Origin: a virus
Lineage: Duplodnaviria; Heunggongvirae; Uroviricota; Caudoviricetes
Direction: 5' to 3' (one strand)
Length of the DNA: 57,747 nt
Virus record (IMG/VR): IMGVR_UViG_2917393062_000003
Span: 1-57,747 of that record
Below the pieces are notes generated by a model. The model ran no database searches. It saw only the letters and a list, made by a program, of their open reading frames with translations, and was not told the DNA's origin. The translations under genes were made by a program, and so were the position numbers. Numbering within the stretch: the first letter of the stretch is position 1; the number at the start of each line of letters is the position of its first letter. Below are positions 21,703-39,385 of this stretch, in pieces.

Positions 21703-22185
21703 ATGTCAGGACCCCCGAAAACCCCGCCACGCCTGCATTTGATACGAGGCAACCCCTCAAAGCGCCCCGTTAAAGACCCAAAAAAAACCGCTAAAAAGGA
21801 TGAAAAAGGTCTCCCTAAAATTCCGCAACATTTAGGGTCGCAGGGGAAGTACTGGTTCAGGCGAATGGCGGAAGAACTGAATGCGGAAGGGATCATTTCT
21901 CAGCTTGATGCGCGTGCACTCGAGTTACTGGTGGAAGCCTACACCGAATACCGGCATCACTGCGAAACACTTGATGCTGAGGGTTATACCTACCGCACGG
22001 AAACGCAGAACGGTGATGTGCTGATTAAGGCACACCCGGCTGCTGCGATGAAAGCGGATGCCTGGAAGCGGATCCGGGCGATGCTTGCAGAGTTTGGTAT
22101 GTCACCGGCAAGCCGGGCGAAAGTAAATACCGCCGGATCGGATGATGTTGATCCGCTGGCGGAGCTTTTAAAAGCGAGAGACTGA
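21703..22185 (+). CDS. terminase small subunit
   Basis: 160 aa; paralogous to 36131-36487; directly upstream of terL. Confidence 0.7.
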   Translation: MSGPPKTPPRLHLIRGNPSKRPVKDPKKTAKKDEKGLPKIPQHLGSQGKYWFRRMAEELNAEGIISQLDARALELLVEAYTEYRHHCETLDAEGYTYRTETQNGDVLIKAHPAAAMKADAWKRIRAMLAEFGMSPASRAKVNTAGSDDVDPLAELLKARD

Positions 22186-23270
22186 TGGCAAAAGTGGCTG
22201 ACGGGATCCGCTACGCCGAACGTGTTGTTGCAGGAGAAATTGTCGCTGGCGAATTTGTCCGTCTGGCCTGCCAGCGTTTTCTTGATGATCTGAAGTACGG
22301 CGAAGAGCGGGGGATTTATTTCAGTGAACCCCGTGCGCAGCACATCCTGAATTTCTACAAATTTGTGCCCCATGTAAAAGGGGCGCTGGCAGGCCAGCCC
22401 ATTGAACTGATGGACTGGCATGTATTTATCCTCATTAATATTTTTGGTTTTGTCATTCCGCTGGTCAATGAAGAGACCGGGGAAGTTGTCATGCGCAGCG
22501 ATGGCAGCGGACGTCCGGTGATGGTGCGCCGGTTCCGGACGGCGTACAACGAAGTCGCCCGTAAAAACGCAAAATCAACCCTGTCATCGGGTATCGGCCT
22601 GTATATGACGGGGGCAGATGGTGAAGGCGGTGCTGAGGTGTATTCAGCCGCAACCACGCGTGACCAGGCCAGAATTGTGTTTGAAGACGCCAAAAATATG
22701 GTCAGAAAAGCCCGGTCGACACTCGGGCGGTTGTTTGATTTCAACAAGCTGGCGATTTACCAGGAGCAGAGCGCATCAAAATTTGAACCGCTTTCCTCGG
22801 ATGCAAACAACCTGGACGGTCTGAACATCCACTGCGCCATTATTGATGAGCTGCATGCTCATAAAACCCGTGACGTGTGGGACGTTCTGGAAACGGCAAC
22901 CGGTGCCCGTCTGCAGTCCCTTTTATTTGGCATCACCACGGCTGGCTTTAACAAGGAAGGGATTTGTTACGAGCAACGCGATTACGCCATCAAGGTATTG
23001 CGAGGCTATAACAGCGACGTGGAGGGCGCGGTAAAAGACGACTCCTACTTTGCAATTATTTACACGCTCGATGAGGGAGATGATCCGTTTGATGAAACGG
23101 TCTGGCAGAAAGCGAATCCCGGCCTGGGCATCTGTAAACGCTGGGATGATCTGCGTCGTCTGGCGAAAAAGGCGAAGGAGCAGGTCTCGGCACGGGTGAA
23201 TTTTTTCACGAAGAAAGTAACATCACGCCGTAACAGCAGTGCGGCCTGTCCTGATTTTTTTAGTAACTAA
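22185..23270 (+). pseudogene. terminase large subunit, N-terminal part, interrupted at about 23212 by the inserted element
   Basis: aligns with the first ~315 aa of the intact TerL at 36471-38132, then runs into 19 codons of element DNA and a stop. Confidence 0.8.
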
Positions 23271-23342
23271 ATGAAAGAAAAAGATTTTTTCTTTTTCGTC
23301 GTTTTTGTTTTTTCTGGATGGTTCTGGCTGTTTTCATCATTT

Positions 23343-23363
23343 GTGTATTGCACTGTGTATTGC
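23343..23363. repeat. 21-bp subterminal repeat (tandem TGTGTATTGC units), left copy; candidate integrase arm-type site
   Basis: GTGTATTGCACTGTGTATTGC here and GTGTATTGCGCTGTGTATTGC at 38553-38573, direct orientation. Confidence 0.5.
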
Positions 23364-23383
23364 AAAAACGGGTTATAAATCAC

Positions 23384-24607
23384 ATGGCGCTAAACAAACT
23401 GAGCGATAAAAAACTTCGTTCCCTGCTTGGGCGCAGGAGTGAGAGGCAGGAAACCATCGCTGATGGTAACGGGCTTTCGGTACGGGTCAGTAAATACGGA
23501 TGTGTTAGTTTTGTTTTCTTTTACAGACTGGCGGGAAGGGGAACCGCGCCCATCTGGCTGACACTTGGAAAATATCCTGATCTGAGTCTCAAATCAGCGA
23601 GAGAGATGCGCGATCAGTGTCGAACTTGGCTTGCGGAGGGCAGAGATCCACGGATTCAGATAAAAATTGAACGGGAAGCCACCTTGCAACCTGTTACCGT
23701 TCGTGAGGCACTTGAATACTGGCTTGATAATTATGCAATGGATAAGCGTAGGGGAGCAGAACATATCAGGCAGTGCTTTGGTAAACATATTTATCCGGTG
23801 ATTGGTCATGTACCACTTAGTGATTGCTCTATATCTATGTGGATCAAGTGTTTTGACAAAATAAAAAAAGTAGCACCTGTACAGGCCGGAGCTTTGTTGC
23901 GTATATCAAAACAGGCGCTTAAATTTTGTAGGGTAAGAAAATACGCGATTAGTCATGAAATTGATGATCTTGAGGTCTGTGATGTGGGAAAAAAGTCTGC
24001 GCGAAGAAGCAGGGTTTTAACAGATGATGAAATCAGAGATTTATGGCGAAGTATTAATACTGATTATGACAATCACGAATTATCATATGAAAACCGAATT
24101 ATTTTACGTTTCCTGGTAGTTTTTGGTTGTCGACTGTCAGAAGTATTACTGTCGTCCTGGGTAGAGTGGGATTTTGATAAGAAATTATGGCGCGTTCCCG
24201 CTGATCATAGCAAAAATGGCAGGGAAATAATCAGACCGATTCCTGATGGCATGTTTAACTGGTTAGTTACGTTAAAAAAAATAACAGGTAACAAAGAAAA
24301 TGTGATTGGGTTTGATATGCGTCAGTGTACGGCAAGCGTAACTATCGGTAAGACATGGAAAAGGATGAAACACTCGGAGAAATGGACGGCGCATGATATG
24401 CGAAGAGTGTTTGCCACAAAACTAAGTGATCATGGTTTTGAACATAATGTGGTTGAACAGTTGCTTGGGCACACATTAGGCGGTGTTGCCGGGGTTTATA
24501 ACAGAAGCCAGTATATGGACAGAAAAAAAGAAGCTATGAACTGGTGGTACGACTATCTGAATAAGCAAATTAGTGGTGACAGTAATGATTCAAATAGTTA
24601 CGCGTGA
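23384..24607 (+). CDS. P4-like tyrosine integrase (N-terminal arm-binding-type domain)
   Basis: about 408 aa from MALNKLSDKKLRSL; catalytic motifs RLSEV, HDMRRVFAT, GGVAGVYNRSQY. Confidence 0.85.
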   Translation: MALNKLSDKKLRSLLGRRSERQETIADGNGLSVRVSKYGCVSFVFFYRLAGRGTAPIWLTLGKYPDLSLKSAREMRDQCRTWLAEGRDPRIQIKIEREATLQPVTVREALEYWLDNYAMDKRRGAEHIRQCFGKHIYPVIGHVPLSDCSISMWIKCFDKIKKVAPVQAGALLRISKQALKFCRVRKYAISHEIDDLEVCDVGKKSARRSRVLTDDEIRDLWRSINTDYDNHELSYENRIILRFLVVFGCRLSEVLLSSWVEWDFDKKLWRVPADHSKNGREIIRPIPDGMFNWLVTLKKITGNKENVIGFDMRQCTASVTIGKTWKRMKHSEKWTAHDMRRVFATKLSDHGFEHNVVEQLLGHTLGGVAGVYNRSQYMDRKKEAMNWWYDYLNKQISGDSNDSNSYA

Positions 24608-24806
24608 AGAACTTGAAAATGATAAAACAATCGACAGGATGATTAAGGAAGATGAATGTGCATGGTTAACAGCTCTTGGCAGGAGACACAGAGCATTACT
24701 TGAAAAGGAAGGAAAATTTCCACGTAAAATATGTATTGGCCCACAAACAAAAGTCTGGCGCTTATCTGAGGTGCTGGAATGGGTAAAGGGTGAATGGAAA
24801 CCCTGA
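24585..24806 (+). CDS. AlpA-family regulator
   Basis: EGKFPRKICIGPQTKVWRLSEVLEWV pattern; start ambiguous (24573, 24585 or 24639). Confidence 0.6.
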   Translation: MIQIVTREELENDKTIDRMIKEDECAWLTALGRRHRALLEKEGKFPRKICIGPQTKVWRLSEVLEWVKGEWKP

Positions 24807-24830
24807 ACTAAATTAAATGAGATATAATCA

Positions 24831-24855
24831 ACCCGTCTTTTGGCGGGTTTTTTTA
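24831..24855 (+). terminator. intrinsic terminator-like hairpin abutting the second alpA-like gene
   Basis: acccgtc-tttt-ggcgggt followed by 7 T. Confidence 0.4.
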
Positions 24856-24869
24856 TAGGTGATATTTTT

Positions 24870-25148
24870 ATGCAAAAATTTATTTATCCTACACCCGAAG
24901 AACGCATTCAGATTCTGAAAGATCATGGCGAACCGTATGATCGCCGTATACGCGAACATGAGTGTGCCAATCGTACCGGGCTTTCAAGAAGCAGACGTTG
25001 GGTACTTGAACAGGAGGGAGCATTTCCTGCTCGTGCTCATTTAGGGAAAGTGTCTGTTTCCTGGTTGCTCTCTGATGTGCTCTGGTGGGTTATGCATCCG
25101 CCAGGAGTAAAGGAAGTAAACAGCCCATACAAAAACGCCAATAAGTAA
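24870..25148 (+). CDS. second AlpA-family regulator
   Basis: EQEGAFPARAHLGKVSVSWLLSDVLWWV pattern. Confidence 0.6.
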   Translation: MQKFIYPTPEERIQILKDHGEPYDRRIREHECANRTGLSRSRRWVLEQEGAFPARAHLGKVSVSWLLSDVLWWVMHPPGVKEVNSPYKNANK

Positions 25149-25158
25149 TTACCGACAA

Positions 25159-25186
25159 CCCCGCACCACGCAATGCGGGGTTTTTT
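25159..25186 (+). terminator. rho-independent terminator
   Basis: ccccgca-ccacgcaa-tgcgggg followed by 6 T. Confidence 0.65.
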
Positions 25187-25205
25187 GTATGTGAGGTAGA
25201 AAGTG

Positions 25206-25799
25206 ATGAATAAAAATATTGCCGCGACGGGCAAGGGTGACGCACGTCATATGAAAAAATTCTGTGATATTCGTGATCTGGTCGTTCTGCGCTTTGATAG
25301 TGTGAACGTTCGCGTGGTGTATCTGAACGGCGATCCGTGGTTTGTTGGCGCTGATGTGTGTGCGGCGCTGGAAATTAGCAACGTTACCGATGCTGTTTCA
25401 GTTCTGGATAGCGATGAGGTAATGACCCTAGCTTTAACCGAGGGTCATTCAGGTAAGCGTGGTGGTGCCAGAAGTTGGAATGTTGTATCAGAATCAGGTT
25501 TTTACAAGTTGATCGCCAGAAGTCGCAAAGCTGTTAATCCTAGCACGTTCGCCCATCGTTTCAGTAATTGGGTATTCAGAAATGTGATACCGGGTATCAG
25601 AAAAACGGGGGCTTATGGTATCCCGTGGGGCGCATTACAGGATTTTTCCCGCCGCAAAGAGCAATACCAGATAAGTGCCAGCGAGAAGGGGAGGGAGCTA
25701 CAGGCATGTAAGCGCAAAAAGCGTGAGCTGGAGGAAGAAGAAAAAAGGCTGATACGTGAATACCAGCCTGAGTTTTACTTTGGTGAGCGTATTCAGTAA
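25206..25799 (+). CDS. Bro-N domain protein (antirepressor-like)
   Basis: N-terminal Bro-N pattern FVGADVCAALEISNVTDAVS...FYKLIARS...FAHRFSNWV. Confidence 0.7.
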   Translation: MNKNIAATGKGDARHMKKFCDIRDLVVLRFDSVNVRVVYLNGDPWFVGADVCAALEISNVTDAVSVLDSDEVMTLALTEGHSGKRGGARSWNVVSESGFYKLIARSRKAVNPSTFAHRFSNWVFRNVIPGIRKTGAYGIPWGALQDFSRRKEQYQISASEKGRELQACKRKKRELEEEEKRLIREYQPEFYFGERIQ

Positions 25800-26449
25800 C
25801 CACACGCGGTGTTGATTATACGGTACATCGTGTTGACCGGGAAGCTACCCACCAGCAAGGCAAAATCTTCTGCTAAAAAATGACATATGACCAGTCGTCC
25901 GGAAAGCATGAAATTTTACAAAAATGGAAAATGAAGATTTTTATTGTGCTGGTGGGTAAAAACAAAAAGCGCCCCGTTACCGGAGCGCCATTGCGAACAA
26001 TTAACCTACTGCGCAAAAAATGAATCTGTGCGGGGGGATTATATCAACCGTGGTCGAAATGACCATAGTTGCAGGATAACAGGCAAAACAAAGGCCACCC
26101 GCTACGGTGGCCCCTCGACACAAGCTACACGTTATCCCCAACGCATGAGCATAACCAACAATGCCACATTTACGGCTGGTGGGCAAATCCTGAGCTGTTC
26201 TGTAATTACAGGAACTACGGCATTGTCGCGGTTAGGTTATGCTCAACTTTTTTTCAACTCTATATCGCAAGCACGCCGTAATATATCGCCTTCATTGCTT
26301 CCGCAAAGATTCTTTTTCTCGAAGCATGATTTTAAGATAAAGGCGGCGACAATTAGAACAATCGCACAGAGTGCACAATTTTTAAGTTTTGGCATCTTTT
26401 ACTCCTATGGTTGCCGCCGTGATTCCTCACACCACGGCGCTGATAGTAA

Positions 26450-26629
26450 TTATTCTGATTCTTTGGCCTTGCGGCGCTGGCGGCGTTTGATCTCGCCACG
26501 CATGGCTGTAACGATAAACTGCGCGTCTGTTTCGTTTTCCTCTTTGACCAAATTCATTTCGCTTAAAACTTCTAGAGGGATTCTAGCCGTTTTTTGTTGT
26601 GATTTGTTGTTGGTTGTACCCGTTGGCAT
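26450..26629 (-). CDS. small regulator, possibly ribbon-helix-helix type
   Basis: 59 aa from MPTGTTNNK; very strong SD AAGGAGG; divergent from the rightward operon. Confidence 0.45.
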   Translation of the reverse strand: MPTGTTNNKSQQKTARIPLEVLSEMNLVKEENETDAQFIVTAMRGEIKRRQRRKAKESE

Positions 26630-26691
26630 TACTAGCCTCCTTACTGTTAGGTGGCGTTCAGTATACGTAGAAAAAAAAAATAAAAAAAAGC

Positions 26692-26742
26692 TTGAAGTGC
26701 AAGTCACCTAAAAGTAGCATAATCCTCAAAGGTGACTTGCAC
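26692..26742 (+). promoter_or_regulatory. rightward promoter bracketed by a perfect 13-bp inverted repeat (operator)
   Basis: -35 TTGAAG, 17-nt spacer, -10 TAGCAT; inverted repeat GTGCAAGTCACCT (26697-26709) / AGGTGACTTGCAC (26730-26742); upstream A-tract. Confidence 0.5.
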
Positions 26743-26823
26743 CTTAAAGACAAAGCCCCGCAAGTGTCGTTACCACTCACAGGGCTTCTAACCACCAACG
26801 ATAACGAGAGTATCGAGGTAGCT

Positions 26824-27030
26824 ATGTTAAATCATACCACACACCCGCAAGGGCGGGACTCGCACAACCTGAATAAATATATCTGGCGTTTTATCGCTCT
26901 GAGCACGGCACAACCGCGCGTGATTACCATTGAGGCCACCAGTGAACAGGAAGCCTGTCAGCAATCACCGGCTGGCTGCGTGATGGTATTCGCCGCCCAT
27001 ATTCGTCAGGGGGTGCACCATGTGCAATAA
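26824..27030 (+). CDS. hypothetical small protein (satellite rightward operon gene 1)
   Basis: ATG 26824 with SD GAGG. Confidence 0.4.
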   Translation: MLNHTTHPQGRDSHNLNKYIWRFIALSTAQPRVITIEATSEQEACQQSPAGCVMVFAAHIRQGVHHVQ

Positions 27031-27256
27031 CACCCGTCCGGACTCAGCCGCCGAAGCTATCAGAACGCTAATGCACGCGCTGATTGATATTTCATGCACG
27101 GCAGCAACCGCAGAAAAACACATTACCAGAGAGACGGAATATGCAGGGGCGATAATCCCGCATTCGCTGGCATATGTGCAGCTTAGTGCCGACATGGCAC
27201 TGGATGAGGCAGGCAAAATTCTTACCGCAGATATCCAGGGGGGACGCCATGCATAA
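27020..27256 (+). CDS. hypothetical small protein
   Basis: overlapping, translationally coupled ORF. Confidence 0.4.
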   Translation: MCNNTRPDSAAEAIRTLMHALIDISCTAATAEKHITRETEYAGAIIPHSLAYVQLSADMALDEAGKILTADIQGGRHA

Positions 27257-27461
27257 TCATGAAGCGCACTTACCTGTAGTGCTGAATGTGCCATCAGATT
27301 ATACGGGGCGCGTACTGGTGTATCTGGAAAAAGGCCGGGTTAAATGCCAGTGCCGTTTAATGGAAAACGAATTTATCAGCACTCTTGCGGGATTTTCTGA
27401 AATGCTCACTAAATCTGGTGTTAGTGCAGACCAGTTACGCGGGGGCGATTATGCGAAATAA
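27249..27461 (+). CDS. hypothetical small protein
   Basis: ATG 27249 overlapping upstream stop. Confidence 0.4.
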   Translation: MHNHEAHLPVVLNVPSDYTGRVLVYLEKGRVKCQCRLMENEFISTLAGFSEMLTKSGVSADQLRGGDYAK

Positions 27462-27669
27462 ACGTGATATTGAAGACCTGGCATTTGAAGCCCTGCACTC
27501 TGCGAAAAAGATCAGGGAAGTCGTCAATATGTGGATGAACAGCCTTAGCACCGATGAATCCGATAGCAGAGAAGAAATTCTTATTTCTTTGTTGTTAGAC
27601 CTGGCAAATACACAGGTTTCTCTGACATCTGATATTGAGCTCGCCGCTAAAAAGCTGCCTCTGGAGTAA
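27451..27669 (+). CDS. hypothetical small protein
   Basis: ATG 27451 overlapping upstream stop. Confidence 0.4.
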   Translation: MRNKRDIEDLAFEALHSAKKIREVVNMWMNSLSTDESDSREEILISLLLDLANTQVSLTSDIELAAKKLPLE

Positions 27670-27799
27670 AAAAACATGAAAAAGAAAAAATTCTGGCTTT
27701 ACTGCCAGCGGTCACGCTCGGCCTGAAATCCGCCCCGGTGATATTTTCCGGGATAAATACGGCAGCACGATAACGATTAAAACTGTCGATGATTTTCGT

Positions 27800-27991
27800 G
27801 TGACCTATATCCGCGAAGGTTATGCGCATCCCTGCGTGTCGTCACATATGCGCTTTGACAGGGAGTTCACCTTGGTAAGCAAAGCACCACCAGCAGAATT
27901 AAGCGACATCGACAGAATCATGCGCGTTACAGGAATGGAACGCATTAAGGCAGTACGTGAAATTATTCGTGAACGGGGAAAGGCAAAATGA
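27800..27991 (+). CDS. hypothetical small protein (GTG start)
   Basis: 63-aa ORF ending in ATGA overlap with the replication gene; weak RBS. Confidence 0.25.
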   Translation: MTYIREGYAHPCVSSHMRFDREFTLVSKAPPAELSDIDRIMRVTGMERIKAVREIIRERGKAK

Positions 27992-30111
27992 AGCGCGCAC
28001 CAAACTTAAAGCACCAGCCAGCCGATAAAATGACGGAGGTTATCATCTTTGCGGGTAGTGATGCGTGGAGCCATGCGAAAGAGTGGCAGGAATGGGCAGG
28101 TAAGCATATTGCCGCCGACAATGTGCCGCCTGTCGTTCTGTCAGATGAACACCTGAAAGATATTACCGGTTATCAAATTATTGATGATAGTCGTCAGTGT
28201 GTGCGTGTTTACCGCGCAGGGCACATCACTGAACGTAGCCTTACACAGATCGTCACGTTGCTGGCTGTGGCTGGCGTGAAGACCGTATACGAATACGCGG
28301 GGATAACTGACACCAGCCCGGCGGATTTATCCGACCAGTTGCCTCGCCTCAAAGACGAATACGAGCGCGGGGAAAGTCTGGTGTTGCCCTTAAAGAAAAA
28401 AATCACAGAAAGCCCGGGTGATGATGAATTAAAGCCCCGCGTTGAAAGCCGCGCCGATGGTGTTTTCTGGGTAACGCCAAAAGTGGATAAGCAGTCAGGC
28501 GAAATTATCCGGCCTGAGACGTGGTTATGTTCCCCGCTTGAACTACTGGGAACGGGGACAATCGGTAAAGAGCATTACCGCGTGATGCGCTGGAAAAAAT
28601 TCGCAAATCATGAAGTCATCACAATGGCGGTTCCGTGCGGTGGCATTGGCGACCGTGACGGCTGGCGGCTGCTGAAAGACCACGGACTGAACGTAACAAC
28701 TAACGGCAAAAATAGGGCTATCCTGGCTGACTGGATGCAGTTAAGCGGAAGCCATGAGGAATGGCAGTTAAGCACAACAACGGGCTGGCATTTTGGCGCG
28801 TACATCATGCCGGACGGTTCGGTCATTGGTGATTGCGAAAAGCCAGTCCTGTTTACCGGAAAAACGGCTGCTGTTAATGGCTATTCCGTGGCAGGAACGG
28901 CGGAGGGTTGGCGCGATACCGTGGCGCGGCTGGCTGGTGGTAATCCGTCCATGATGCTGGGTGTGGCGGTATCGTTATCCGCACCATTAATCGGGCTGGT
29001 GGGTGCTGACGGCTTCGGGGTACATCTTTTCGAACAGTCATCGGCAGGGAAAACCACCACACAGAACATCGCATCCAGTTTATGGGGAGAGCCGGACGCA
29101 CAACGGCTGACCTGGTACGGCACGGCGTTAGGTATCGCCAACGAGGCCGAAGCACATAATGACGGGCTGTTACCCCTGGATGAAATAGGTCAGGCCGGAA
29201 ACGCGCGGGAGGTGTCCACGTCAGCCTATACGCTGTTTAACGGTTCCGGGAAATTACAGGGGGCAAAGGACGGCGGCAACAGGGAGATAAAACACTGGCG
29301 AACGGTGGCAATCAGTACCGGAGAAATGGACGTTGAAACATTCCTCAAAACGGAAGGGATAAAAGTCAAGGCGGGGCAGCTTGTCCGCCTGCTTAACGTG
29401 CCAATGGAAAAAGCCACACAATTTCACGAATACAGCACCGGAAAGGCACACGCAGACGCGTTAAAGGATGCCTGGACAGAAAATCACGGGGCGGCGGGGC
29501 GTGAATGGGTTAAATGGTTGGCAGACCATCAGCAGGAGGCAAAGGACACGGTAAGGGCATGCCGTGAACGGTGGCGCAACCTGATACCGGAGAGCTACGG
29601 CGAGCAGGTACACCGCGTGGGTGAGCGTTTCGCCATACTGGAGGCCGCGCTTGTGCTTTCCGGTCATGTTACTGGCTGGGATGTTCAGGCGTGCCGCGAT
29701 GCCATACAGCATAATTTTTATGCCTGGGTGAAGGAGTTCGGCACGGGTAACAGGGAGTTTAAACAGATGGTTGAACAGGCAGAGGCTTTTTTAGCGTCGT
29801 TCGGATTCAGCAGATACCTTCCGTGGCCCAACACCGACGAGCGTGATTTACCGATTAAAGAGCTTGCCGGATACAGAAAGGGGAGTATCAGAAACGAAGA
29901 TGACGAGTTCCGTTTTTACACGTTCCCGCATGTATTTGAGGGTGAGATAGCACAGGGATTTAATCCGTCTCACTTTGCCCGCGCGTTGAGTGCTGCCGGA
30001 ATGCTGGAAGCGGGTAACGATCGCCGTTACAAGAAAAAGGCGCTCGGCAAAATTGGGGGGAAGCAGCATGTTTTTTACGTGCTGATGTTCCAGCCTGAGG
30101 CAGAAGATTAA
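27988..30111 (+). CDS. satellite replication protein with P-loop NTPase (DUF927-like primase/helicase class)
   Basis: 707 aa; Walker A SSAGKTT; iterons immediately downstream; family name from memory. Confidence 0.6.
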   Translation: MKRAPNLKHQPADKMTEVIIFAGSDAWSHAKEWQEWAGKHIAADNVPPVVLSDEHLKDITGYQIIDDSRQCVRVYRAGHITERSLTQIVTLLAVAGVKTVYEYAGITDTSPADLSDQLPRLKDEYERGESLVLPLKKKITESPGDDELKPRVESRADGVFWVTPKVDKQSGEIIRPETWLCSPLELLGTGTIGKEHYRVMRWKKFANHEVITMAVPCGGIGDRDGWRLLKDHGLNVTTNGKNRAILADWMQLSGSHEEWQLSTTTGWHFGAYIMPDGSVIGDCEKPVLFTGKTAAVNGYSVAGTAEGWRDTVARLAGGNPSMMLGVAVSLSAPLIGLVGADGFGVHLFEQSSAGKTTTQNIASSLWGEPDAQRLTWYGTALGIANEAEAHNDGLLPLDEIGQAGNAREVSTSAYTLFNGSGKLQGAKDGGNREIKHWRTVAISTGEMDVETFLKTEGIKVKAGQLVRLLNVPMEKATQFHEYSTGKAHADALKDAWTENHGAAGREWVKWLADHQQEAKDTVRACRERWRNLIPESYGEQVHRVGERFAILEAALVLSGHVTGWDVQACRDAIQHNFYAWVKEFGTGNREFKQMVEQAEAFLASFGFSRYLPWPNTDERDLPIKELAGYRKGSIRNEDDEFRFYTFPHVFEGEIAQGFNPSHFARALSAAGMLEAGNDRRYKKKALGKIGGKQHVFYVLMFQPEAED

Positions 30112-30132
30112 CCCCTGTGTGAGGTGAAAAGT

Positions 30133-30257
30133 TGCGGGTTATGCGGGTTATCCTGTGTATAAGTGCATTAACTGTATGAATAAAAAGGAAATCAATAACC
30201 CGCACGTAACCCGCAAAACGGCAGTTATAACCCGCAAAAGTGCGATTATAACCCGCA
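30133..30257. repeat. iteron cluster (TAACCCGCA units in both orientations), candidate replication origin
   Basis: two inverted-orientation units at 30133-30150 and four direct units between 30196 and 30257. Confidence 0.6.
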
Positions 30258-30743: not shown

Positions 30744-30758
30744 GCAGTGAGGTACAGC

Positions 30759-31040: not shown

Positions 31041-31085
31041 TAACGGTTGTTAACTGTTTCTGGTATCGTGGCAGCAGGAGGAAAC

Positions 31086-31334
31086 ATGCCAGTGACATTT
31101 GAAGAAGTCCAGCAACATAAAAAGCTTCATGATTTTGATGATCTGGAAACCACGACAGTAAAAAAATATCGCCGGCTGCTTTCTTCCGATGCGTTATTTT
31201 TTGTGGATCATCATGATTTTCTGCGTAGCTCACTGACCGGGGAAATTTTCGCAACCAACCGTGAGCAGGTGGAAGCGATGATCGAATATCTGTGGAAAAT
31301 AAGGCGCAGAATGCGTGATCCCGTGAAACGGTAG
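31086..31334 (+). CDS. hypothetical protein
   Basis: ATG 31086 with SD AGGAGG. Confidence 0.45.
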   Translation: MPVTFEEVQQHKKLHDFDDLETTTVKKYRRLLSSDALFFVDHHDFLRSSLTGEIFATNREQVEAMIEYLWKIRRRMRDPVKR

Positions 31335-31343
31335 AATAATAAT

Positions 31344-31372
31344 GGCCTGGTATTTTCCAGGCCATTTTTTTT
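31344..31372. terminator. rho-independent terminator between convergent genes
   Basis: ggcctgg-tatttt-ccaggcc followed by 8 T. Confidence 0.65.
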
Positions 31373-31844
31373 AGAAGTCGATCTCTGTATCGCGATTAAA
31401 TTCATCGCTAAGGTAAAGTGCTTCGCTTGGGCATTTTCCGTTTTCCAGTAATGTTTCCCAGAAATCTTTATCGAAACACCCCTCAAGATACAGATAGCGG
31501 CAGATGTGAAGTAAATCACTTCGTGTCCATCCGTGCATGCTGCTACTTGTTACACCATATTCACTTTCTAGTTTATAGAATGTGAGCGCCTCCCGGTCGT
31601 GCCAGGCTTTGCACAGACGATCGTATATCTTTTTAGCTTTGTTTTTAGATGTGCCGAAAAACTCTTCGTAAATTTCATGTGGGCGAGCAGGAATACTTCC
31701 GTCGCCATCCTGCAAGAAAGGATAAACATCTGCCTCCCAGGCATACACGTAAGAATCGCTGAACTCATCATAGTGTTTACCAAGGTGGAGAATCTGCAAT
31801 CGTTGCTGAATGAACATTGCTTTTTTCAGTTCATTTTCTGACAT
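31371..31844 (-). CDS. opposite-strand cargo protein of unknown function (candidate accessory or defence gene)
   Basis: 157 aa; only minus-strand gene in the satellite core; noticeably lower GC than neighbours; own upstream region. Confidence 0.55.
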   Translation of the reverse strand: MSENELKKAMFIQQRLQILHLGKHYDEFSDSYVYAWEADVYPFLQDGDGSIPARPHEIYEEFFGTSKNKAKKIYDRLCKAWHDREALTFYKLESEYGVTSSSMHGWTRSDLLHICRYLYLEGCFDKDFWETLLENGKCPSEALYLSDEFNRDTEIDF

Positions 31845-32138
31845 AGTTCGTTCCTCCTGATTGACGAGCAGAAAATGTACGGAACAGCTTATTTATTTTT
31901 TCAGGTTTTGTAAATTATTTGTTCGTGGTTGTTCCAGGTTGTTCGGTGATTCTGGCTGATGTTTACATACTGATTTTTATGTATATGTTGGCGTGTGGCA
32001 CTCAGACGTGAGCCGCCACAATGCCGCCTGACCCCCTGCGCGATGCCGGGTTGATCTGCGAGATGCCGGGAGTGTCGGGCGGCGCTCCCTCCGTGTTGGT
32101 TTCACGTCCTGAATCTTAACCAATACGAGAAAACCTTC

Positions 32139-33284
32139 ATGAAGAAATTAATCGAACTCCGCCAGCAAAAAACCGCCCTGAAAAACCAGATGCGATCCCT
32201 GCTGGAAAAAGCCGACAGTGAAAACCGCAGCCTGAACGATGACGAGGGCAAACAGTTTGATGAACTGCGTGCAAAAGCCGATTCCCTCGACACAGAAATT
32301 TCCCGTCTTGAAGCTGTTGCGGATGAAGAACGTAACCAGCCAGGTGTTTCCGTCGAAGAGAAAATCACCAAAGACGAACTGCGCTCTTACATTCTGACCG
32401 GGGAAACCCGCAACCTGTCCGGCAGTGTCCCGGCTGATGGTGGTTATACGGTTATCCCGGAACTGAACAGAGAAATTATGCGTCAGCTTTCTGATGAATC
32501 GGTGATGCGTAAAATCTGTACCGTTAAAACCATTCACAGCAATGAATTTAAGCAACTGGTTTCTGCCGGGGGTGCGGTCGTTGAACACGGCGAAGAAGGT
32601 GCGGCACGTAACCAGACGGCAACACCAAAACTGAATGAAGTCAGTATCCGCCTGTATCCGATCTACGCTTACCCGAAAACCACTCAGGAAATTATCGATT
32701 TTTCCGAAGTCGATATTATGGGCTGGTTATCTTCTGAAATTGGCGACACTTTCGTTGATACCGAAGAAATGGATCTGGTTTCTGGTGATGGCGAGAAAAA
32801 AGCTAAAGGTTTCCTGGCTTTTCCGCGCACTGCGGATAACGACAAAACCCGTCCTTTCGGTACGCTCCAGACGAAAAAAGTTACTGGCAGTCTCAGCGCC
32901 GACATGCTGATTGACCTGAAATTTACGCTGCGCAATAAGTACCGCAAAAAAGCTGTATGGGTGATGAACTCAAATACAGCCGCCTCCGCACAAAAACTGA
33001 AAAATGCCACTGGTGATTACATCTGGCGCGATCGTTTACAGGCTGGTGATCCTGATTCTCTGCTGGGGCTTCCGGTTGAATATCTGGAATTTATGCCGGA
33101 CGGTGTGATTGCAGTAGGTGACTTTAAGCGCGGTTATTTCATCGTTGACCATGAAACCGGTACGCGTACCCGTCCGGATTTCAGCGAACCCGGATTCATT
33201 AACATCTATACCCAGAAATATCTGGGCGGTGGTGTGGTGGATTCGAACGCCATCAAGATTCTGGAAATTCAGGCTGGCAAGTAA
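32139..33284 (+). CDS. HK97-family major capsid protein (satellite)
   Basis: 381 aa; paralogous in architecture to prophage MCP at 41463-42686. Confidence 0.8.
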   Translation: MKKLIELRQQKTALKNQMRSLLEKADSENRSLNDDEGKQFDELRAKADSLDTEISRLEAVADEERNQPGVSVEEKITKDELRSYILTGETRNLSGSVPADGGYTVIPELNREIMRQLSDESVMRKICTVKTIHSNEFKQLVSAGGAVVEHGEEGAARNQTATPKLNEVSIRLYPIYAYPKTTQEIIDFSEVDIMGWLSSEIGDTFVDTEEMDLVSGDGEKKAKGFLAFPRTADNDKTRPFGTLQTKKVTGSLSADMLIDLKFTLRNKYRKKAVWVMNSNTAASAQKLKNATGDYIWRDRLQAGDPDSLLGLPVEYLEFMPDGVIAVGDFKRGYFIVDHETGTRTRPDFSEPGFINIYTQKYLGGGVVDSNAIKILEIQAGK

Positions 33285-33333
33285 TGAGCAAAGGGGGCTT
33301 CGGCCTCCTTTTTCAGCTTTATGGAGTACACCG

Positions 33334-33894
33334 ATGAAAAATACCGATTTTGAAATCCGTACATCTGAACTGACCGCCAGTGATAAAAAACTGGTGGGTT
33401 ATGCCGTTCGCTGGAACAGCCTTTCAGAAATTATCTGGGACGAATTCCGCGAACAGTTTACGCCGGGGGCTTTTGCTGACTATCTGGCGGCGGGTAATGA
33501 TGTGCGCTGCCTGTATGAGCATGACTATACCCGACTGCTGGGGCGCACCAAATCCGGAACACTGGTACTGACTGAGGACAACACCGGGCTACGTTTTGAA
33601 CTGACACCGCCTGATACCCAGCTTGGAAAAGATGTGCTTACGCTGGTGGAGCGTGGCGACATTACAGGAATGAGCTTTGGCTTTCGCGCATTATGCGAAG
33701 AATGGAATATCGCGCAAAAACCGTATCTGCGCACTGTTACCGCCGCAGAACTTCGTGAAATCACGATAACGTCAATGCCTGCTTATCCCGAATCTGGCGT
33801 GGAGATTGCCCGCCGTTCGTTGTTTGCACAGCACCCTGAATTACGCCCGACAGGAAATAATCGTCATCGCTGGGCTGAACTGGCGGGGTTGTGA
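33334..33894 (+). CDS. HK97-family prohead protease (satellite)
   Basis: about 186 aa from MKNTDFEIR with SD GGAG; paralog of 40798-41448. Confidence 0.75.
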   Translation: MKNTDFEIRTSELTASDKKLVGYAVRWNSLSEIIWDEFREQFTPGAFADYLAAGNDVRCLYEHDYTRLLGRTKSGTLVLTEDNTGLRFELTPPDTQLGKDVLTLVERGDITGMSFGFRALCEEWNIAQKPYLRTVTAAELREITITSMPAYPESGVEIARRSLFAQHPELRPTGNNRHRWAELAGL

Positions 33895-33895
33895 T

Positions 33896-35110
33896 ATGTG
33901 GTGGCCTTTTAGTCGTAAAAAAAGCGATCTGCGTAACCTGTCCATTGATGATTTTCTGGCGCTGTCCGGCGTACCGAATACCGGATCCGGAGAATATGTT
34001 TCTGCCGGGACGGCTGAATCATTGCCTGCTGTGATGAACGCGGTTTCTGTCATCGCTGAGGCGGTGGCCACGATGCCGTGTTATCTGTATCTGGTACGTA
34101 ATGACAAGGGCAGGGAGGCGCGGGAATGGCTGGACAGTCACCCGGTCGATATTCTGCTGAATGAGCAGCCTAATTCGTGCCAGACACCTTACCAGTTTAA
34201 ACGCACAATGATGCGTCACTGCCTGCTGAACGGTAACGCCTATGCGGTTATTGAGTGGGGGCGGGACGGTCAGCCAAAATCACTTCATCCTTATGCGCCG
34301 GGTTGTGTTGTACCGGAACGCACTGGCGCACACAAATACCGCTATACCATCACCGAACCCTATACAGGAACGGTGCGCACGTATTTACAGGAAGAAGTCC
34401 TGCATCTCCGCTATGCCTCGGATGATGGCTTTCTGGGACGTTCCCCCGTCACGATTTGCCGTGAGGCGCTGGGGCTTGGCCTTGCTCAACAGCGTCACGG
34501 AGCCAGCATTATGAAAGATGGCATGATGGCGGCAGGGGTTATTACGTCAGGCGAATGGCTGGACGGCGTGAAAGGTAAACAGGCATTAGACGCCCTGGAA
34601 CGCTACAAGGGGGCGAAAAATGCCGGAAAAACGCCAATCCTTGAAGGGGGCATGGATTACAAGCAACTGGGGATGAGTAACCAGGATGCGGAATGGCTGG
34701 CCTCCCGTCGCTTCTCCATTGAAGACATCGCCCGGATGTTCAACGTATCGCCTATTTTTCTGCAGGAATACAGCAACAGCACCTACAGCAATTTCAGCGA
34801 GGCAAGCCGCGCGTTTCTGACCATGACAATGCGCCCATGGCTGGCGAACTTCGAACAGCAAATTAAGGCCGCTTTGCTGGTGGCTTCTCCCGTACCTGGT
34901 ACCCGTTATCTGGTTGAGTTTGATTCAGCCGATTTATTACGCGCCACCCCTACCGAACGTTACGCCACGTATGAGAAAGGGATTAAGAACGGGATCATGA
35001 ATCCGAACGAAGCCCGCGAACGTGAGGGGATGCCGCCGCGTGAAGGTGGCGACGAATTCAGCCAGGCATGGAAGCAGACGGTGGAAATTAAAGGTGAAAA
35101 AGATGAGTGA
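33896..35110 (+). CDS. portal protein (satellite)
   Basis: about 404 aa from MWWPFSRKK; paralog of prophage portal 39579-40820. Confidence 0.75.
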   Translation: MWWPFSRKKSDLRNLSIDDFLALSGVPNTGSGEYVSAGTAESLPAVMNAVSVIAEAVATMPCYLYLVRNDKGREAREWLDSHPVDILLNEQPNSCQTPYQFKRTMMRHCLLNGNAYAVIEWGRDGQPKSLHPYAPGCVVPERTGAHKYRYTITEPYTGTVRTYLQEEVLHLRYASDDGFLGRSPVTICREALGLGLAQQRHGASIMKDGMMAAGVITSGEWLDGVKGKQALDALERYKGAKNAGKTPILEGGMDYKQLGMSNQDAEWLASRRFSIEDIARMFNVSPIFLQEYSNSTYSNFSEASRAFLTMTMRPWLANFEQQIKAALLVASPVPGTRYLVEFDSADLLRATPTERYATYEKGIKNGIMNPNEAREREGMPPREGGDEFSQAWKQTVEIKGEKDE

Positions 35111-35402
35111 AGAAAAAATTACACCTGATGAGGTCAGGGCACATCTTCGCCTTGATAACTTCTACGATGAAGGCGAACTTCTGAAAATGTATACCGATGC
35201 GGCGCTGGAAGCCTGCCAGAAGCATATCGGGAAACGTTTTGAAGACGGGCTGGAATTTACCCCGGCAATACGTGTTGGTTGCCTGATGTACATTGCTTTC
35301 CTGTACGAGAACAGGGAAGCGGTTTCACCTGTGGAGCAGTCTGAACTGCCTATGGCTATTTCTGCGCTCTGGTCGGTTTATCGTGATGTAGGGGTGTACT
35401 GA
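35103..35402 (+). CDS. head-tail connector (gp6-like) protein (satellite)
   Basis: 99 aa; HLRLDNFYDEGELLK pattern shared with prophage 42733-43056. Confidence 0.65.
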   Translation: MSEEKITPDEVRAHLRLDNFYDEGELLKMYTDAALEACQKHIGKRFEDGLEFTPAIRVGCLMYIAFLYENREAVSPVEQSELPMAISALWSVYRDVGVY

Positions 35403-35842
35403 TGCCGTGGCAACCATTAAGGCGATGCACTGAGCCGGGCTGTAATAAGCGCGTGAAGTCCGGCAAGTGCGAAGATCACAGGCGGGCTGCATGGCGTGCA
35501 GAGGATGCCAGACGGGGACACCGCCGCGCGCGCGGGTATTCCCGACAGTGGGACAAATACCGCGCCCTGTACCTGAGCAAAAACCCGTTATGCGTGCGTT
35601 GTCTGGCTAAGGGGATTTATACGCCAGCTCTTGTGGTGGATCACATCATTCCCATCAATGGCGGCGGTGATGTTCTCTTCTGGCCTGAGTGGAATCACCA
35701 GGCATTGTGCCAGACGTGCCACAACCGTAAGACGACACGGGAAGATCCAGCCACGAAAGCGAACCGTAAGGCGGGCATGTATCGCGAGCAGGAAGAACGG
35801 GCGGCACATCGTAACGACTGGATGTATGGCGATGATGACTGA
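35402..35842 (+). CDS. HNH endonuclease (satellite, terminase-associated)
   Basis: 146 aa; Cys-rich, VDHIIPINGGG...CQTCHNRKT motif. Confidence 0.8.
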   Translation: MPWQPLRRCTEPGCNKRVKSGKCEDHRRAAWRAEDARRGHRRARGYSRQWDKYRALYLSKNPLCVRCLAKGIYTPALVVDHIIPINGGGDVLFWPEWNHQALCQTCHNRKTTREDPATKANRKAGMYREQEERAAHRNDWMYGDDD

Positions 35843-36011
35843 ACAGGAGCAAAACAGGCTGATACGTGGACTGATAAGGCAGCGTGACACATGGAAGGCA
35901 CAGGAGACAGGGCACAAAGCCAACAGGACAGGGCGCACAGAACGCACCACAGCGAAGCGATTAACCGACCGTGACCGCGAGGTCATGGAATGTTTTCGCA
36001 ATCGCTGGTGA
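35826..36011 (+). CDS. hypothetical small basic protein
   Basis: 61-aa ORF overlapping HNH stop. Confidence 0.25.
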   Translation: MAMMTEQEQNRLIRGLIRQRDTWKAQETGHKANRTGRTERTTAKRLTDRDREVMECFRNRW

Positions 36012-36130
36012 GGCCGTCAGAGGGGGTGGGGGAGGTTTTCAGGACAAAACCGTCCCTGCCGGACACCGACCGCCTCCTCAAATTTTTGTGCACGGAAATT
36101 TTTTTGAAAATAATTGGGCGAAAAAAGAAC

Positions 36131-36487
36131 ATGGCAAGACCACCAAAAGCCCCCGCTTACCTGGATGAAATCGCGGTCAGGCAGTGGAAGGAAAAATCGC
36201 GCCAGCTTTCCGGGCGGGAAGACCTTACCCCCGCCGACTGGAGCAATCTGGAACTGTATTGCGTTAACTACTCCATATACCGCAAAGCCGTCGAAGACCT
36301 TGCGACGCGCGGCTTCAGCATTGTTAACAGTCAGGGCAGCGAGAGCAGAAACCCCGCCCTGAGCGCAAAGGCTGACGCGGAAAGAATAATGATCAAAATG
36401 GCTTCTTTGCTGGGTTTTGACCCGGTAAGCCGCCGCAGAAATCCACCGGAAACAGAGGAAGAGGACGAGCTTGACCGCCTGGCATGA
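36131..36487 (+). CDS. terminase small subunit (satellite)
   Basis: start MARPPKAPAYLDEIAVRQW; paralog of 21703-22185. Confidence 0.65.
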   Translation: MARPPKAPAYLDEIAVRQWKEKSRQLSGREDLTPADWSNLELYCVNYSIYRKAVEDLATRGFSIVNSQGSESRNPALSAKADAERIMIKMASLLGFDPVSRRRNPPETEEEDELDRLA

Positions 36488-38132
36488 GTACGCAGAAGGC
36501 GTAAAAAACGGCAAAATTACGGCCTGTAAACGACTGAAACAGGCCGTTAAACGGTATTTTTCTGACCTTGAAAACCCCCTTTACACGTTCGATCCGGAGG
36601 TCGTGGAGCGGTTTATTGCCTTTTCTAGGGTGTGTCCGCACGTAAAAGGCGCAATGCGCGGTAGCCCCATTGAGCTGGAGCCGTGGCAGCAGTTCGCCTT
36701 TGCCTGCATCCTGGGCTTTAAGGTTAAGGCCACCGGACGGCGCAAATACACCAGCGCATTCATTGAAGTACCGCGAAAAAATGCCAAATCCACGGTCGCC
36801 GCTATCCTGGCTAACTGGTTTCTGGTTATGGAACACGGGCAGCAGGATATTTACACCGCCGCCGTGAGTCGTGATCAGGCGCGGATCGTGTTTGATGATG
36901 CGCGTCAGATGTGCCTTTTATCCCGACCGTTACGAAAGCGGGTAAATATTCAGGCGCACAAGGTGATACACCCGAAAACCAACAGCCTGTTAAAGCCACT
37001 GGCAGCAAAAGCGGCAACCATTGAGGGGACAAACCCGAGTCTTGCCATTGTGGATGAATATCACCTGCACCCTGACAACGGGGTTTATTCCGCGCTTGAA
37101 CTGGGAATGGGGGCGCGTCCGGAGGGGTTATTATTTGCCATCACCACATCGGGGAGCAACGTTGTTTCAGCCTGTAAACAACACTACGACTATTGCTGCC
37201 AGATACTGGATGGTGAAGAGGTGAACGAATCCATGTTCGTGCTGATTTACGAGCTGGATGATGAAAGCGAGGTTGACGATCCGGCGATGTGGATAAAGGC
37301 GAATCCCAATATCGATGTTTCCGTCGATCGTGAAAAACTGGCCTCAACCATCCAGAAAGCGCGGGGTATTCCGTCGCAGTGGGTGGAAATGCTCACCAAG
37401 CGATTCAATATCTGGTGTCAGGGGGCTACGCCGTGGATGGGTAACGGTGCATGGGCGGAGTGCGCCGGAACGTTCGCGGAGGCGGATTTATACGGGCAGG
37501 AGTGCTACGCGGGGCTGGACTTATCATCAACCAGCGATATTTCCAGCGTGTGCTATGCCTTTCCGGTCGGTAAAAAGATTATGCTGGTTTCCCGTCACTA
37601 TCTGCCGGAATTTCAGCTACAGAACCCCGCCAATAAAAACCGCGCCATCTATCGCCAGTGGGTAAAGGCGGGCTGGATACGCACAACACCGGGTGACTGC
37701 ATTGATTATGACCGTATCCGTGATGACATCATGGCGGATGCAGAGAATTTCAATATCAGGCTGGTGGGCTTCGATACATGGAACGCCACGCACCTGAGGA
37801 CGCAGCTACAGGGGGCAGGATTTGAGGTGGAGCCGTTCCCGCAAACATACCTTCGTTTCAGTCCGGCGGCGAAATCGTTCGAAGTTTTTGTTAACCGGAA
37901 GGTGATTGTTCATCGTGGTGATCCGGTGCTGGCCTGGTCAATGAGTAATGTTGTGATGCAGAGTGACGCGAACGCCAATATCAAGCCGAACAAGAAAAAA
38001 TCATCCAACAAGATAGACCCGAGCGTTGCGGCGCTGATGGCGTTTGGCACATTCCAGGCAGAGCATGAGGAATTTGCATTCGATATGAGCGACAGCCACA
38101 AAGAGCGGCTTGCGGCGTTTGATGGTGTGTAA
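36471..38132 (+). CDS. terminase large subunit (satellite, intact)
   Basis: 553 aa; TTG start overlapping terS; PRKNAKST Walker A-like; homologous to both split prophage terL parts. Confidence 0.85.
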   Translation: MTAWHEYAEGVKNGKITACKRLKQAVKRYFSDLENPLYTFDPEVVERFIAFSRVCPHVKGAMRGSPIELEPWQQFAFACILGFKVKATGRRKYTSAFIEVPRKNAKSTVAAILANWFLVMEHGQQDIYTAAVSRDQARIVFDDARQMCLLSRPLRKRVNIQAHKVIHPKTNSLLKPLAAKAATIEGTNPSLAIVDEYHLHPDNGVYSALELGMGARPEGLLFAITTSGSNVVSACKQHYDYCCQILDGEEVNESMFVLIYELDDESEVDDPAMWIKANPNIDVSVDREKLASTIQKARGIPSQWVEMLTKRFNIWCQGATPWMGNGAWAECAGTFAEADLYGQECYAGLDLSSTSDISSVCYAFPVGKKIMLVSRHYLPEFQLQNPANKNRAIYRQWVKAGWIRTTPGDCIDYDRIRDDIMADAENFNIRLVGFDTWNATHLRTQLQGAGFEVEPFPQTYLRFSPAAKSFEVFVNRKVIVHRGDPVLAWSMSNVVMQSDANANIKPNKKKSSNKIDPSVAALMAFGTFQAEHEEFAFDMSDSHKERLAAFDGV

Positions 38133-38212
38133 CGGAATGGATGAGAGAGGACAATGCTCATTTAATGGAATAAATTTTCAGTATTACCGGTACCCACTTT
38201 CAGGGATGTTTT

Positions 38213-38370
38213 TGCGGGTTATTTGAGGGGGAGGTGCGGGTTATTTTGAATGTCTTGCGGGTTACATTCTGGCTGATATTTAAATACGTTGTTTTTTAAC
38301 GCATTGATATTAAAGAGTAAAAAATACTTAGCACGCGAAGATAACCCGCTAACCCGCATAACCCGCGCTG
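38213..38370. repeat. second iteron cluster (AACCCGC units), crr-like
   Basis: three rc units at 38213-38264 and three direct units at 38341-38370; same repeat unit as 30133-30257. Confidence 0.55.
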
Positions 38371-38552
38371 TTTTGTATATATATACGAAAAATTGCATTC
38401 AGGGGGGGATCGAAATTTCTACTGCCTCTTATCTCTTTGAGTGCTCACCTCGTCAGATTGTTACACACAAGAAATAAAAAATGCTTCGCGATGGTAGGTC
38501 GAATCACTGTATCAAAAAACGGTGTGTATCAGCATTAAAACAATACAGATAC

Positions 38553-38573
38553 GTGTATTGCGCTGTGTATTGC
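38553..38573. repeat. 21-bp subterminal repeat, right copy
   Basis: GTGTATTGCGCTGTGTATTGC; one mismatch to left copy at 23343-23363. Confidence 0.5.
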
Positions 38574-38659
38574 TTGATGATTTATAAAGACTGTTTTTTC
38601 ATGTTAAACGATTGATATACAGGTGATTTTAAAAAACTTGAAATATTCTCACGAAACAC

Positions 38660-39385
38660 ATGAATGTGTGGGTCACTGCCGAATCTGCCTGGATGGACAT
38701 GATTAAGTGGGAGAAGTGCGAATACATTGCTCCACAGCATGAGCTGAAAACATATCCCATGTGGGTCGGCGTCGACCTTGCTCATAAGATTGATATCTGT
38801 GCGGCGGCAAAACTCTGGCGAACCGATAACGGACATGTTCATGCCGATTTTAAATTCTGGCTTCCGGAAGGACGGCTGGAACGATGCTCGCGGCAGCAGG
38901 CAGAACTTTACCGGAAGTGGGCAGAGATGGGGAAGCTCATCCTGACGGATGGTGATGTTATCGATCATGCTCAGATAAAAAGTGACTTACTGGAATGGAT
39001 TGGCGGTGAAAACCTCAGGGAACTGGGATTTGACCCGTGGAGCGCAATGCAGTTCAGTCTGGCGCTGGCTGAAGAAGGGATACCGCTGGTGGAAGTTCCG
39101 CAGACGGTCCGCAATCTGTCAGAGGCTATGAAGGAAACGGAATCACTGGTTTATGCCGGACGTTTCCACCACAGTAATCATCCGGTTATGAACTGGATGA
39201 TGTCTAACGTTACGGTAAAACCGGACAAAAACGACAATATCTTCCCGAATAAATCCACGCCGGAAGCCAAAATCGACGGCCCTGTTGCGATGTTTACAGC
39301 AATGAGCCGGATGCTGGTCAATGGCGGTGAACCGGAGCCGGATCTGTCTGAACATCTGGTCAGCGTGGGTATCCGTTCGCTTTAA
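38660..39385 (+). pseudogene. terminase large subunit, C-terminal part (continues the frame from 38642; would fuse to 22185-23212 on precise excision)
   Basis: 241 aa aligning with the last ~240 aa of satellite TerL; in-frame upstream codons encode NILTKH before MNVWV. Confidence 0.8.

Follow-up and report, generated by a model that had tools for sequence, protein, structure and literature searches.

A 15.4-kb capsid-forming satellite in the terminase gene of a lambdoid Escherichia coli prophage, with a probable excision switch

Helper-embedded phage-inducible chromosomal islands (HE-PICIs) were defined by Tommasini, Mageeney and Williams in 2023 (NAR Genom Bioinform; PMC10111431), with 491 elements at 14 sites in prophage late genes. 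One of these sites, named A:Terminase_1:245 in the main text of that paper and A:Terminase_1:246 in its supplements, is represented in SuppFile 1 (as A_Terminase_1_246) by approximately 61 entries of 15 to 16 kb from Escherichia coli, E. albertii and Arsenophonus; the identity block is 'ttaccaa' in 44 and 'tcacgaa' in 12, and some of the elements lie in 57-kb composites (PMC10111431 SuppFiles 1, 3 and 4). For the founder of the class, Eco567.11capE (11capE), the composite was excised at 1 h and replicated, and the satellite was excised at 2 h, with attB restored in 42-98% of copies (PMC10111431). In the published model, it is excision of the satellite that turns the interrupted late gene on, a 'regulated gene integrity that serves the HE-PICI' (PMC10111431). 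Here we describe positions 1 to 57,747 of the IMG/VR record IMGVR_UViG_2917393062_000003 (the window), in which terL, the large terminase gene, is split. With good confidence, the window can be read as a lambdoid E. coli prophage carrying a 15.4-kb capsid-forming satellite, an HE-PICI of A:Terminase_1:246, with an excision switch. This overall grading blends two parts: the identity of the element as an HE-PICI of this site group is almost certain, and the excision-switch mechanism, which is drawn by analogy with 11capE, is probable. The same class, site and core were published in 2023 (PMC10111431), so that the arrangement is already known and is confirmed here, not discovered.

The two junctions carry the heptamer TCACGAA, as the attL copy at 23206-23212 and the attR copy at 38649-38655 (both plus strand), and this is a block listed for A_Terminase_1_246 in SuppFile1 of PMC10111431. 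The left junction reads GTG AAT TTT TTC ACG AAG and the right AAT ATT CTC ACG AAA CAC ATG, and since the T of TCACGAA is codon position 2 of the terL frame in both copies, the codon phase is kept across the repeat. Other 7- to 9-mers are also common to the two stretches of approximately 200 bp around the junctions, so a shared 7-mer alone is unremarkable. Its position is more telling. The helper terL 5' part (22185-23212, plus strand) aligned by BLAST to nt 1-1028 of intact terL at 98.4% identity and the 3' part (38656-39385, plus strand) to nt 1015-1758 at 97.3%, which places the repeat exactly at the homology break; the chance of a 7-nt overlap at such a break is approximately 6e-5. The BLAST overlap spans 14 nt, the 7-bp repeat and more, because the flanks are alike: AATTTTTTCACGAA and AATATTCTCACGAA agree in 12 of their 14 positions. 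The first-pass annotation of this DNA had proposed a terL split in frame at a 7-bp direct repeat with related flanks, and the coordinates of both copies, the frame and the relatedness of the flanks were all borne out.

Joining 22185-23212 to 38656-39385 gave 1758 nt encoding 585 aa, with a terminal stop only; the earlier expectation of an intact open reading frame (ORF) thus held, at a length of 585 aa and not the approximately 590 first given. In E. coli DCE7 and WAT, terL is intact and likewise 1758 nt long; the two genes are 98.1% and 97.4% identical to the join, respectively, and differ from it by one amino acid, so that the joined ORF is neither frameshifted nor lacking residues. Across the junction both read GAATTTTTTCACGAAACACATGAATG, exactly as the join does, and the stretch ...GGGTGAATTTTTTCACGAAACACATGAATGTGTGGG... 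is the same in all three. Profile positions abut without loss across the split, both for Pfam (TerL_ATPase and the first 63 nuclease profile positions, TerL_nuclease 2-63, in the 5' part, then TerL_nuclease 64-283, the rest of the nuclease domain, in the 3' part) and for phrog_9 (169-448 then 449-673). The join also aligned with the satellite's own TerL without a gap through VNFFTKHMNVWV / VEMLTKRFNIWC, in agreement with the residue-for-residue fit claimed at first. Uninterrupted genes in hundreds of public assemblies (919 index blocks) encode a protein 100% identical to the joined one, which supports the initial proposal that precise excision would regenerate a full-length helper TerL; six such genes differed from the join by 25-42 nt, all synonymous. 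Isolated temperate phages, among them phi467, Evi and PhiR49_2, have the uninterrupted gene at approximately 96-97% identity. With a product identical to a widespread intact allele, the split terL is not decaying. The junctions expected after excision are GAATTTTTTCACGAAACACATG for attB and GAAATATTCTCACGAAGAAAGTAAC for attP.

While the insert is in place, the helper TerL is cut off after 342 residues because attP carries no replacement for the 3' end of the gene: past the junction the helper ORF continues for 19 unrelated codons to a stop at 23270, and the in-frame sequence upstream of the terL 3' part holds stops. The interrupted gene (22185-23270) still encodes 361 aa, comprising the complete TerL ATPase domain and 19 satellite-derived residues. 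Expression of this product from the late operon, if it occurs, could yield a truncated terminase fragment with a possibly interfering action.

The insert, counted with one copy of the core, occupies 23213-38655 (15,443 bp, plus strand) and holds approximately 20 genes inside terL, between the helper terS and portal genes; its boundaries were set by comparison with empty sites. As is typical of HE-PICIs, it lies within a late gene of a prophage and has the orientation of that gene. The published attL and attR sequences of the site group (e.g. Eal51, Eco11232), ...gggtgaatttttTCACGAAgaaagtaacatcacgccg... and ...aacttgaaatattcTCACGAAacacatgaatgtgtgggtcac..., correspond almost base for base to 23190-23230 and 38635-38680. 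The satellite tyrosine integrase (23384-24607, plus strand; Pfam Phage_integrase and Arm-DNA-bind_3; start by homology to the RefSeq annotation in 2014C-3075) is 50% identical over its full length to the founder 11capE integrase and scored 404 bits, a similarity score close to the TBLASTN cutoff of 400 bits used for the class. Several HE-PICI members are likewise close to that cutoff (PMC10111431). The identity block is short (7 bp) and comes without a replacement gene end, an AlpA gene lies beside int, and the genes follow the four-zone order of the class.

HE-PICIs also carry the motif tgTGTATTGCantgTGTATTGCa, doubled and co-oriented, approximately 81 bp upstream and 132 bp downstream of the attP centre (PMC10111431). 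Exactly two matches to the doubled TGTATTGC motif were found in the window, both on the plus strand, where none is expected by chance: TGTATTGCgcTGTGTATTGC on the P arm of attP (38554-38573; start -98 and end -79 from the core centre) and TGTATTGCacTGTGTATTGC on the P' arm (23344-23363; start +135). The few-bp gap between these offsets (-79 and +135) and the published 81 and 132 is a matter of where the centre and the edges of the motif are taken to lie. The doubled motif stands at identical offsets on the attP arms of five other composites.

An assembly artefact or a self-splicing or homing element (an intein, a group I intron or a homing endonuclease cassette) could also split a gene in this way. 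Inteins and introns often reside in terL genes, and HNH genes lie nearby. Such insertions measure 0.3-2 kb and have neither an integrase nor att repeats, and they were ruled out by the anatomy of the insert, with its 15.4 kb, approximately 20 genes, tyrosine integrase beside attL, arm-type motifs and 7-bp direct repeat. The same junctions also recur in 36 complete genomes, and we regard explanations of this kind as scarcely credible.

The helper terL is common and the occupied site uncommon. Identity to the terL 5' part was at least 95% in 932 of the 936 matching E. coli records, which came from 935 of 5,426 complete genomes. An occupied attL junction was present in 36 of the 935 complete genomes with this terL, and 34 of these also had attR. 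From the paired junction coordinates, the inserts measure 14.6-17.8 kb and fall into at least 15 size classes. The copy in the window (15,443 bp) is identical to none of the 36; the best junction matches were 98.5% and 99.5%, with another insert length. The empty site exists, and uninterrupted terL with the same junction sequence is found in other E. coli prophages. Five of the six complete composites examined join into an intact 585-aa ORF, the exception being UMNF18, an assembly annotated with many frameshifts. Among the six composites compared, a small sample, satellites were 94-98% identical, and satellites and helpers were both mosaic.

These findings are consistent with the following course of events. 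The satellite tyrosine integrase has put the element into the terL codons F-T-K, in the nuclease domain. On SOS induction, the whole composite would excise and replicate, and Q-antiterminated late transcription would enter the satellite and drive int and alpA. Int and AlpA would then excise the satellite late, with recombination of attL and attR leaving the 585-aa terL. Until that point there would be no helper TerL and no packaging of helper DNA, while the downstream tail genes would still be transcribed; since the helper has a Q-like antiterminator, expression of tail genes downstream of a 15-kb insert is plausible. Terminator scans found no terminator-like site between the helper terL 5' part and int, nor between the satellite terL and attR. 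The satellite would package itself in its own capsids with its own terminase and take helper tails. The claim that the element acts as a reversible switch on helper packaging needs one amendment: the switch is the published model (PMC10111431), and reversibility would apply only at the level of the lineage, for in the induced cell the switch would be one-way, reversed only by re-integration in a new lysogen with a matching attB core.

With divergent head and packaging genes of its own, the satellite should depend on its helper for tails only, and from its gene content it is expected to build its own small capsids and take only those tails. The same set of genes admits another explanation, in which no switch is needed and the satellite TerL, TerS and HNH replace the broken helper terminase while the satellite is integrated. 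The satellite does have a full HNH-TerS-TerL set of the same family, and a captured copy as a possible 'backup' for the interrupted gene was raised in PMC10111431. Satellite and helper homologues are, however, only 20-39% identical (TerL 32%, TerS 27%, HNH 39%, portal 32%, capsid 34%). At such divergence, cos/TerS recognition and portal docking are usually specific. The composite of approximately 57.7 kb, moreover, would be too large for a head that is made to take approximately 42 kb of genome, and we consider such a stand-in highly improbable.

Several observations weigh against an excision switch or would suit a fossil insertion, that is, a single integration into a prophage now defective, inherited vertically without excision, with the split terL a pseudogene. 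Both halves of terL are flagged in RefSeq as pseudogenes, and a truncated appearance is noted for many HE-PICI helpers (PMC10111431). A contiguous attP was found in none of the collections searched: not in IMG/VR (degenerate 36-mer), not in JGI metagenome contigs (28-mer) and, as a reconstructed 407-nt attP, not in 50,697 phage records; in the 5,426 E. coli genomes its arms occurred only in the 36 occupied genomes and were always split. These searches cover free, circular, tandem and packaged forms in assemblies and do not thereby exclude transient excision. Decayed and rearranged examples exist: GF31 is without most of the satellite and its terL lacks both ends, and in ETEC4090 (NZ_CP122620.1) attL and attR are 149 kb apart. 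The divergence of the split gene is synonymous only, and an origin before the insertion is not separable from one after it. Excision and its timing were measured only for 11capE, in a capsid gene, and not for the terL site group, and virions were not recovered even for 11capE and its helper (PMC10111431). Finally, we infer the helper role of the prophage from its position only.

Against a fossil, every head and packaging ORF of the satellite is intact in the window, as are its integrase and its two AlpA genes, and so are both terL halves, which jointly encode a product 100% identical to the common allele. Clean joins in five of six composites, despite mosaic satellites of 14.6-17.8 kb, mosaic helpers and two matched cores, argue for repeated independent integrations. 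The sister element 11capE excises precisely on induction. We therefore consider a fossil insertion unlikely, and precise excision remains our preferred reading.

Two core alleles are in use at the occupied sites compared. The alleles are synonymous for the F-T-K codons, and attL always equals attR, with TCACGAA in the window, 2014C-3075 and KFu019 and TTACCAA in 042, 181.1 and UMNF18. In a sample of 120 empty sites from IMG/VR, TTACCAA was counted 95 times, TCACGAA 14, TCACAAA nine and TCACCAA two; the occupied sites in IMG/VR had TTACCAA in 13 cases and TCACGAA in four. Neither TCACAAA nor TCACCAA was seen among Escherichia-type occupied sites in the IMG/VR attL scan or the core-string counts from the published table. 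The absence of the rarer alleles from occupied sites gave a Fisher p of 0.36 within IMG/VR and of 0.007-0.018 when pooled with the published set, whose table is a different sampling frame from IMG/VR. In short megablast searches, the TCACGAA 37-mer of the empty site matched 60 genomes. The 'no match' obtained for the TTACCAA 37-mer was rejected as an artefact of low-complexity filtering of its T7 run, TTACCAA being the majority allele in IMG/VR and present in E. coli 042. The attB core alleles in helper terL may be a lock-and-key or escape polymorphism against satellites that need a matching attP core.

A further proposal, which we put forward tentatively and regard as rather doubtful, is that the break in terL is itself the interference, the helper being reduced in cis to a tail-and-lysis factory for as long as the satellite is integrated, with the core alleles acting as lock-and-key or escape. 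Here a complete capsid-forming PICI (cf-PICI) with orthogonal packaging would sit in the helper, and Q-antiterminated transcription would cross the insert to the tail genes. Neither interference by the terL break nor a core-allele polymorphism is discussed in PMC10111431, and both are compatible with its supplementary data.

The satellite's own terL carries GAAATGC-TCACCAA-GCGATTC at the codons homologous to the helper attB (37393-37399). Its core-like 7-mer differs from each of the two active cores at a single base, but the flanks are unlike. This probably prevents self-integration, as was argued for 11capE (PMC10111431).

The satellite genes are all on the plus strand, co-oriented with the helper late operon, except for minus-strand ORFs at 26450-26707 and 31371-31844, and the zones run from Int/AlpA through Bro-N and DUF4222/DUF927/SSB to a late zone from capsid through TerL. 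Behind int lie two AlpA-family regulators, the first a putative excisionase (24573-24806; Pfam Phage_AlpA, 2.5e-9; 51% identical to the 11capE AlpA) and the second at 24840-25148 (Pfam Phage_AlpA, 7.2e-10), both on the plus strand. Strong terminator-like hairpins stand at 24830-24849 and 25157-25182 (plus strand), one after each alpA gene, and recall the regulated termination described for P4 and for the Bro zones of PICIs (PMC10111431). The Bro zone has a Bro-N or anti-repressor-like protein (25203-25799, plus strand; Pfam Bro-N, 2e-16; phrog_2593). Between it and the replication genes, approximately 25800-27400 is without a convincing ORF or an Rfam match; a 255-aa ORF with a TTG start at 25944-26711 had no Pfam or PHROG match and is of odd composition. 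In related satellites this interval holds small genes of the YlcI/YnfO and Icd-like kinds; the GF31 satellite breaks off behind its Icd-like gene, where it is joined to a tail-fibre fragment beside potB. C4/isrK immunity RNAs are reported for some HE-PICIs (PMC10111431); an Rfam scan found none in the satellite Bro zone or the rest of the satellite, its four matches all lying in the helper.

The replication zone (27800-30111, plus strand) comprises DUF4222 (27800-27991) and a DUF927 primase (27988-30111), followed on the same strand by SSB (30321-30743; Pfam SSB, 1.5e-15) and a PerC-family activator (30747-31040; Pfam PerC, 2.9e-35). This activator is kept in the satellites of 042, 181.1, UMNF18 and KFu019. 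In pathogenic E. coli, virulence loci are under the control of PerC/Pch proteins. The late zone, all on the plus strand, begins with four genes named from Pfam/PHROG and the RefSeq annotation of homologous satellites: an HK97-type capsid (32139-33284), a prohead protease (within 33118-33894), the portal (within 33806-35110) and a gp6-like connector (within 35022-35402). The HNH gene (35402-35842), a P27-family TerS (within 35990-36487) and TerL (36471-38132) complete it. Pfam/PHROG annotation of the insert revealed no tail or lysis genes. In a separate observation, phrog_9, a TerL family, matched the C-terminus of the satellite integrase (ORF 23318-24607, residues 297-428; profile positions 690-811 of 812; 2.9e-25), which suggests that TerL::integrase chimeric ORFs, called in phage records with such insertions, have entered the phrog_9 alignment.

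The helper combines lambdoid early genes (integrase, exonuclease, O-like initiator, Q-like antiterminator and endolysin) with an HK97-type head module in the order HNH-TerS-TerL-portal-protease-capsid and a complete contractile tail. On the plus strand, the Q-like late antiterminator (16893-17588; phrog_304, 3.2e-108) precedes an HNH endonuclease taken to be a packaging accessory (21206-21556; syntenic annotation in intact relatives) and terS, a P27-family small terminase (21703-22185; Pfam Terminase_4, 4.4e-26; phrog_83). Behind the terL 3' part, the remainder of the late operon (39579-57747, plus strand; PHROG) runs through portal, protease, capsid, head closure, sheath (44687-46183), tube, tape measure, baseplate and tail fibres. 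The record vB_EcoM-606R7 was tried as a collinear functional reference for the helper and ruled out: it is a contig from a lysate, has chromosomal flanks and carries a tail module of the siphovirus type. The potB prophage att block given for some hosts, CACCTTCTTATTCA (PMC10111431), is absent from the window. At 394-1183 (minus strand) and 13434-14221 (plus strand), the helper carries two diverged, inverted modules of isrK small RNA, C4 antisense RNA and anti-repressor (ORF6N/Ant), with Rfam scores of 71-74 bits, PHROG 2379 and inverted repeats that are 72-87% complementary. One copy of the module lies outside the prophage integrase gene (1216-2334, minus strand).

A satellite can thus control its helper in cis, interrupting the gene for the packaging motor and restoring it only by leaving, as was reported in 2023, and here the att core, the reading frame and the proposed mechanism could be recovered from the DNA alone. 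Annotation pipelines call such terL halves pseudogenes and the prophage defective, and these calls may be wrong. The helper of 2014C-3075, which carries the same kind of satellite, has stxA1d and stxB1d at 13823-15049, upstream of its split terL (19173-20201 and 35268-36011). Satellite excision may therefore gate the production of a toxin phage, since in at least this one strain the interrupted helper is an Stx1d-converting prophage. The remaining interest is modest and lies in the capsid-forming nature of the site group, the synonymous core alleles and the Stx1d helper in 2014C-3075.

In comparison with the published A:Terminase_1:246 elements, the element described here has the same terL codons, identity block, size class, Int/AlpA-Bro-Replication-Late order and doubled TGTATTGC motifs, and no substantive difference was seen. 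The founder 11capE of E. coli NRG857c, the one HE-PICI studied by experiment, is likewise embedded in and co-oriented with a helper late gene, with an attP that brings no replacement. It is, however, an 11-kb element in a lambda-E-type capsid gene with a 10-bp block, whereas ours measures 15.4 kb and lies in terL with a 7-bp block. Of the genes for capsid, portal, TerS and TerL, 11capE has only the first, and it presumably relies on the cos packaging of its helper; the element in the window has a complete head-and-packaging set and breaks the packaging motor of its helper, not the capsid.

The gene content is that of cf-PICIs (de Sousa et al. 2023, PMC10085698; He et al., preprint 10.1101/2025.02.11.637232). 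As in EcCIEDL933, for example, it includes int, AlpA, primase, capsid, protease, portal, connector, HNH, TerS and TerL without tail or lysis genes, and the size lies within 10-18 kb; the one departure is the second head-tail protein, as a single gp6-like connector was detected. Described cf-PICIs are treated as chromosomally integrated and as acting on the helper in trans, whereas this element sits in the helper. Helper-embedded integration is mentioned in neither PMC10085698 nor 10.1101/2025.02.11.637232, and the cf-PICI literature consulted does not link embedding to the capsid-forming type, the combination seen in this site group.

The closest parallel outside satellites is regulated gene integrity or 'active lysogeny' (skin in sigK, phi10403S in comK; PMC7192596), in which a gene is rebuilt by precise excision and the element brings no replacement end, an analogy drawn in the HE-PICI paper itself (PMC10111431). 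The difference here is that the interrupted gene belongs to another mobile element, a prophage, and that the satellite rather than the host cell would presumably benefit.

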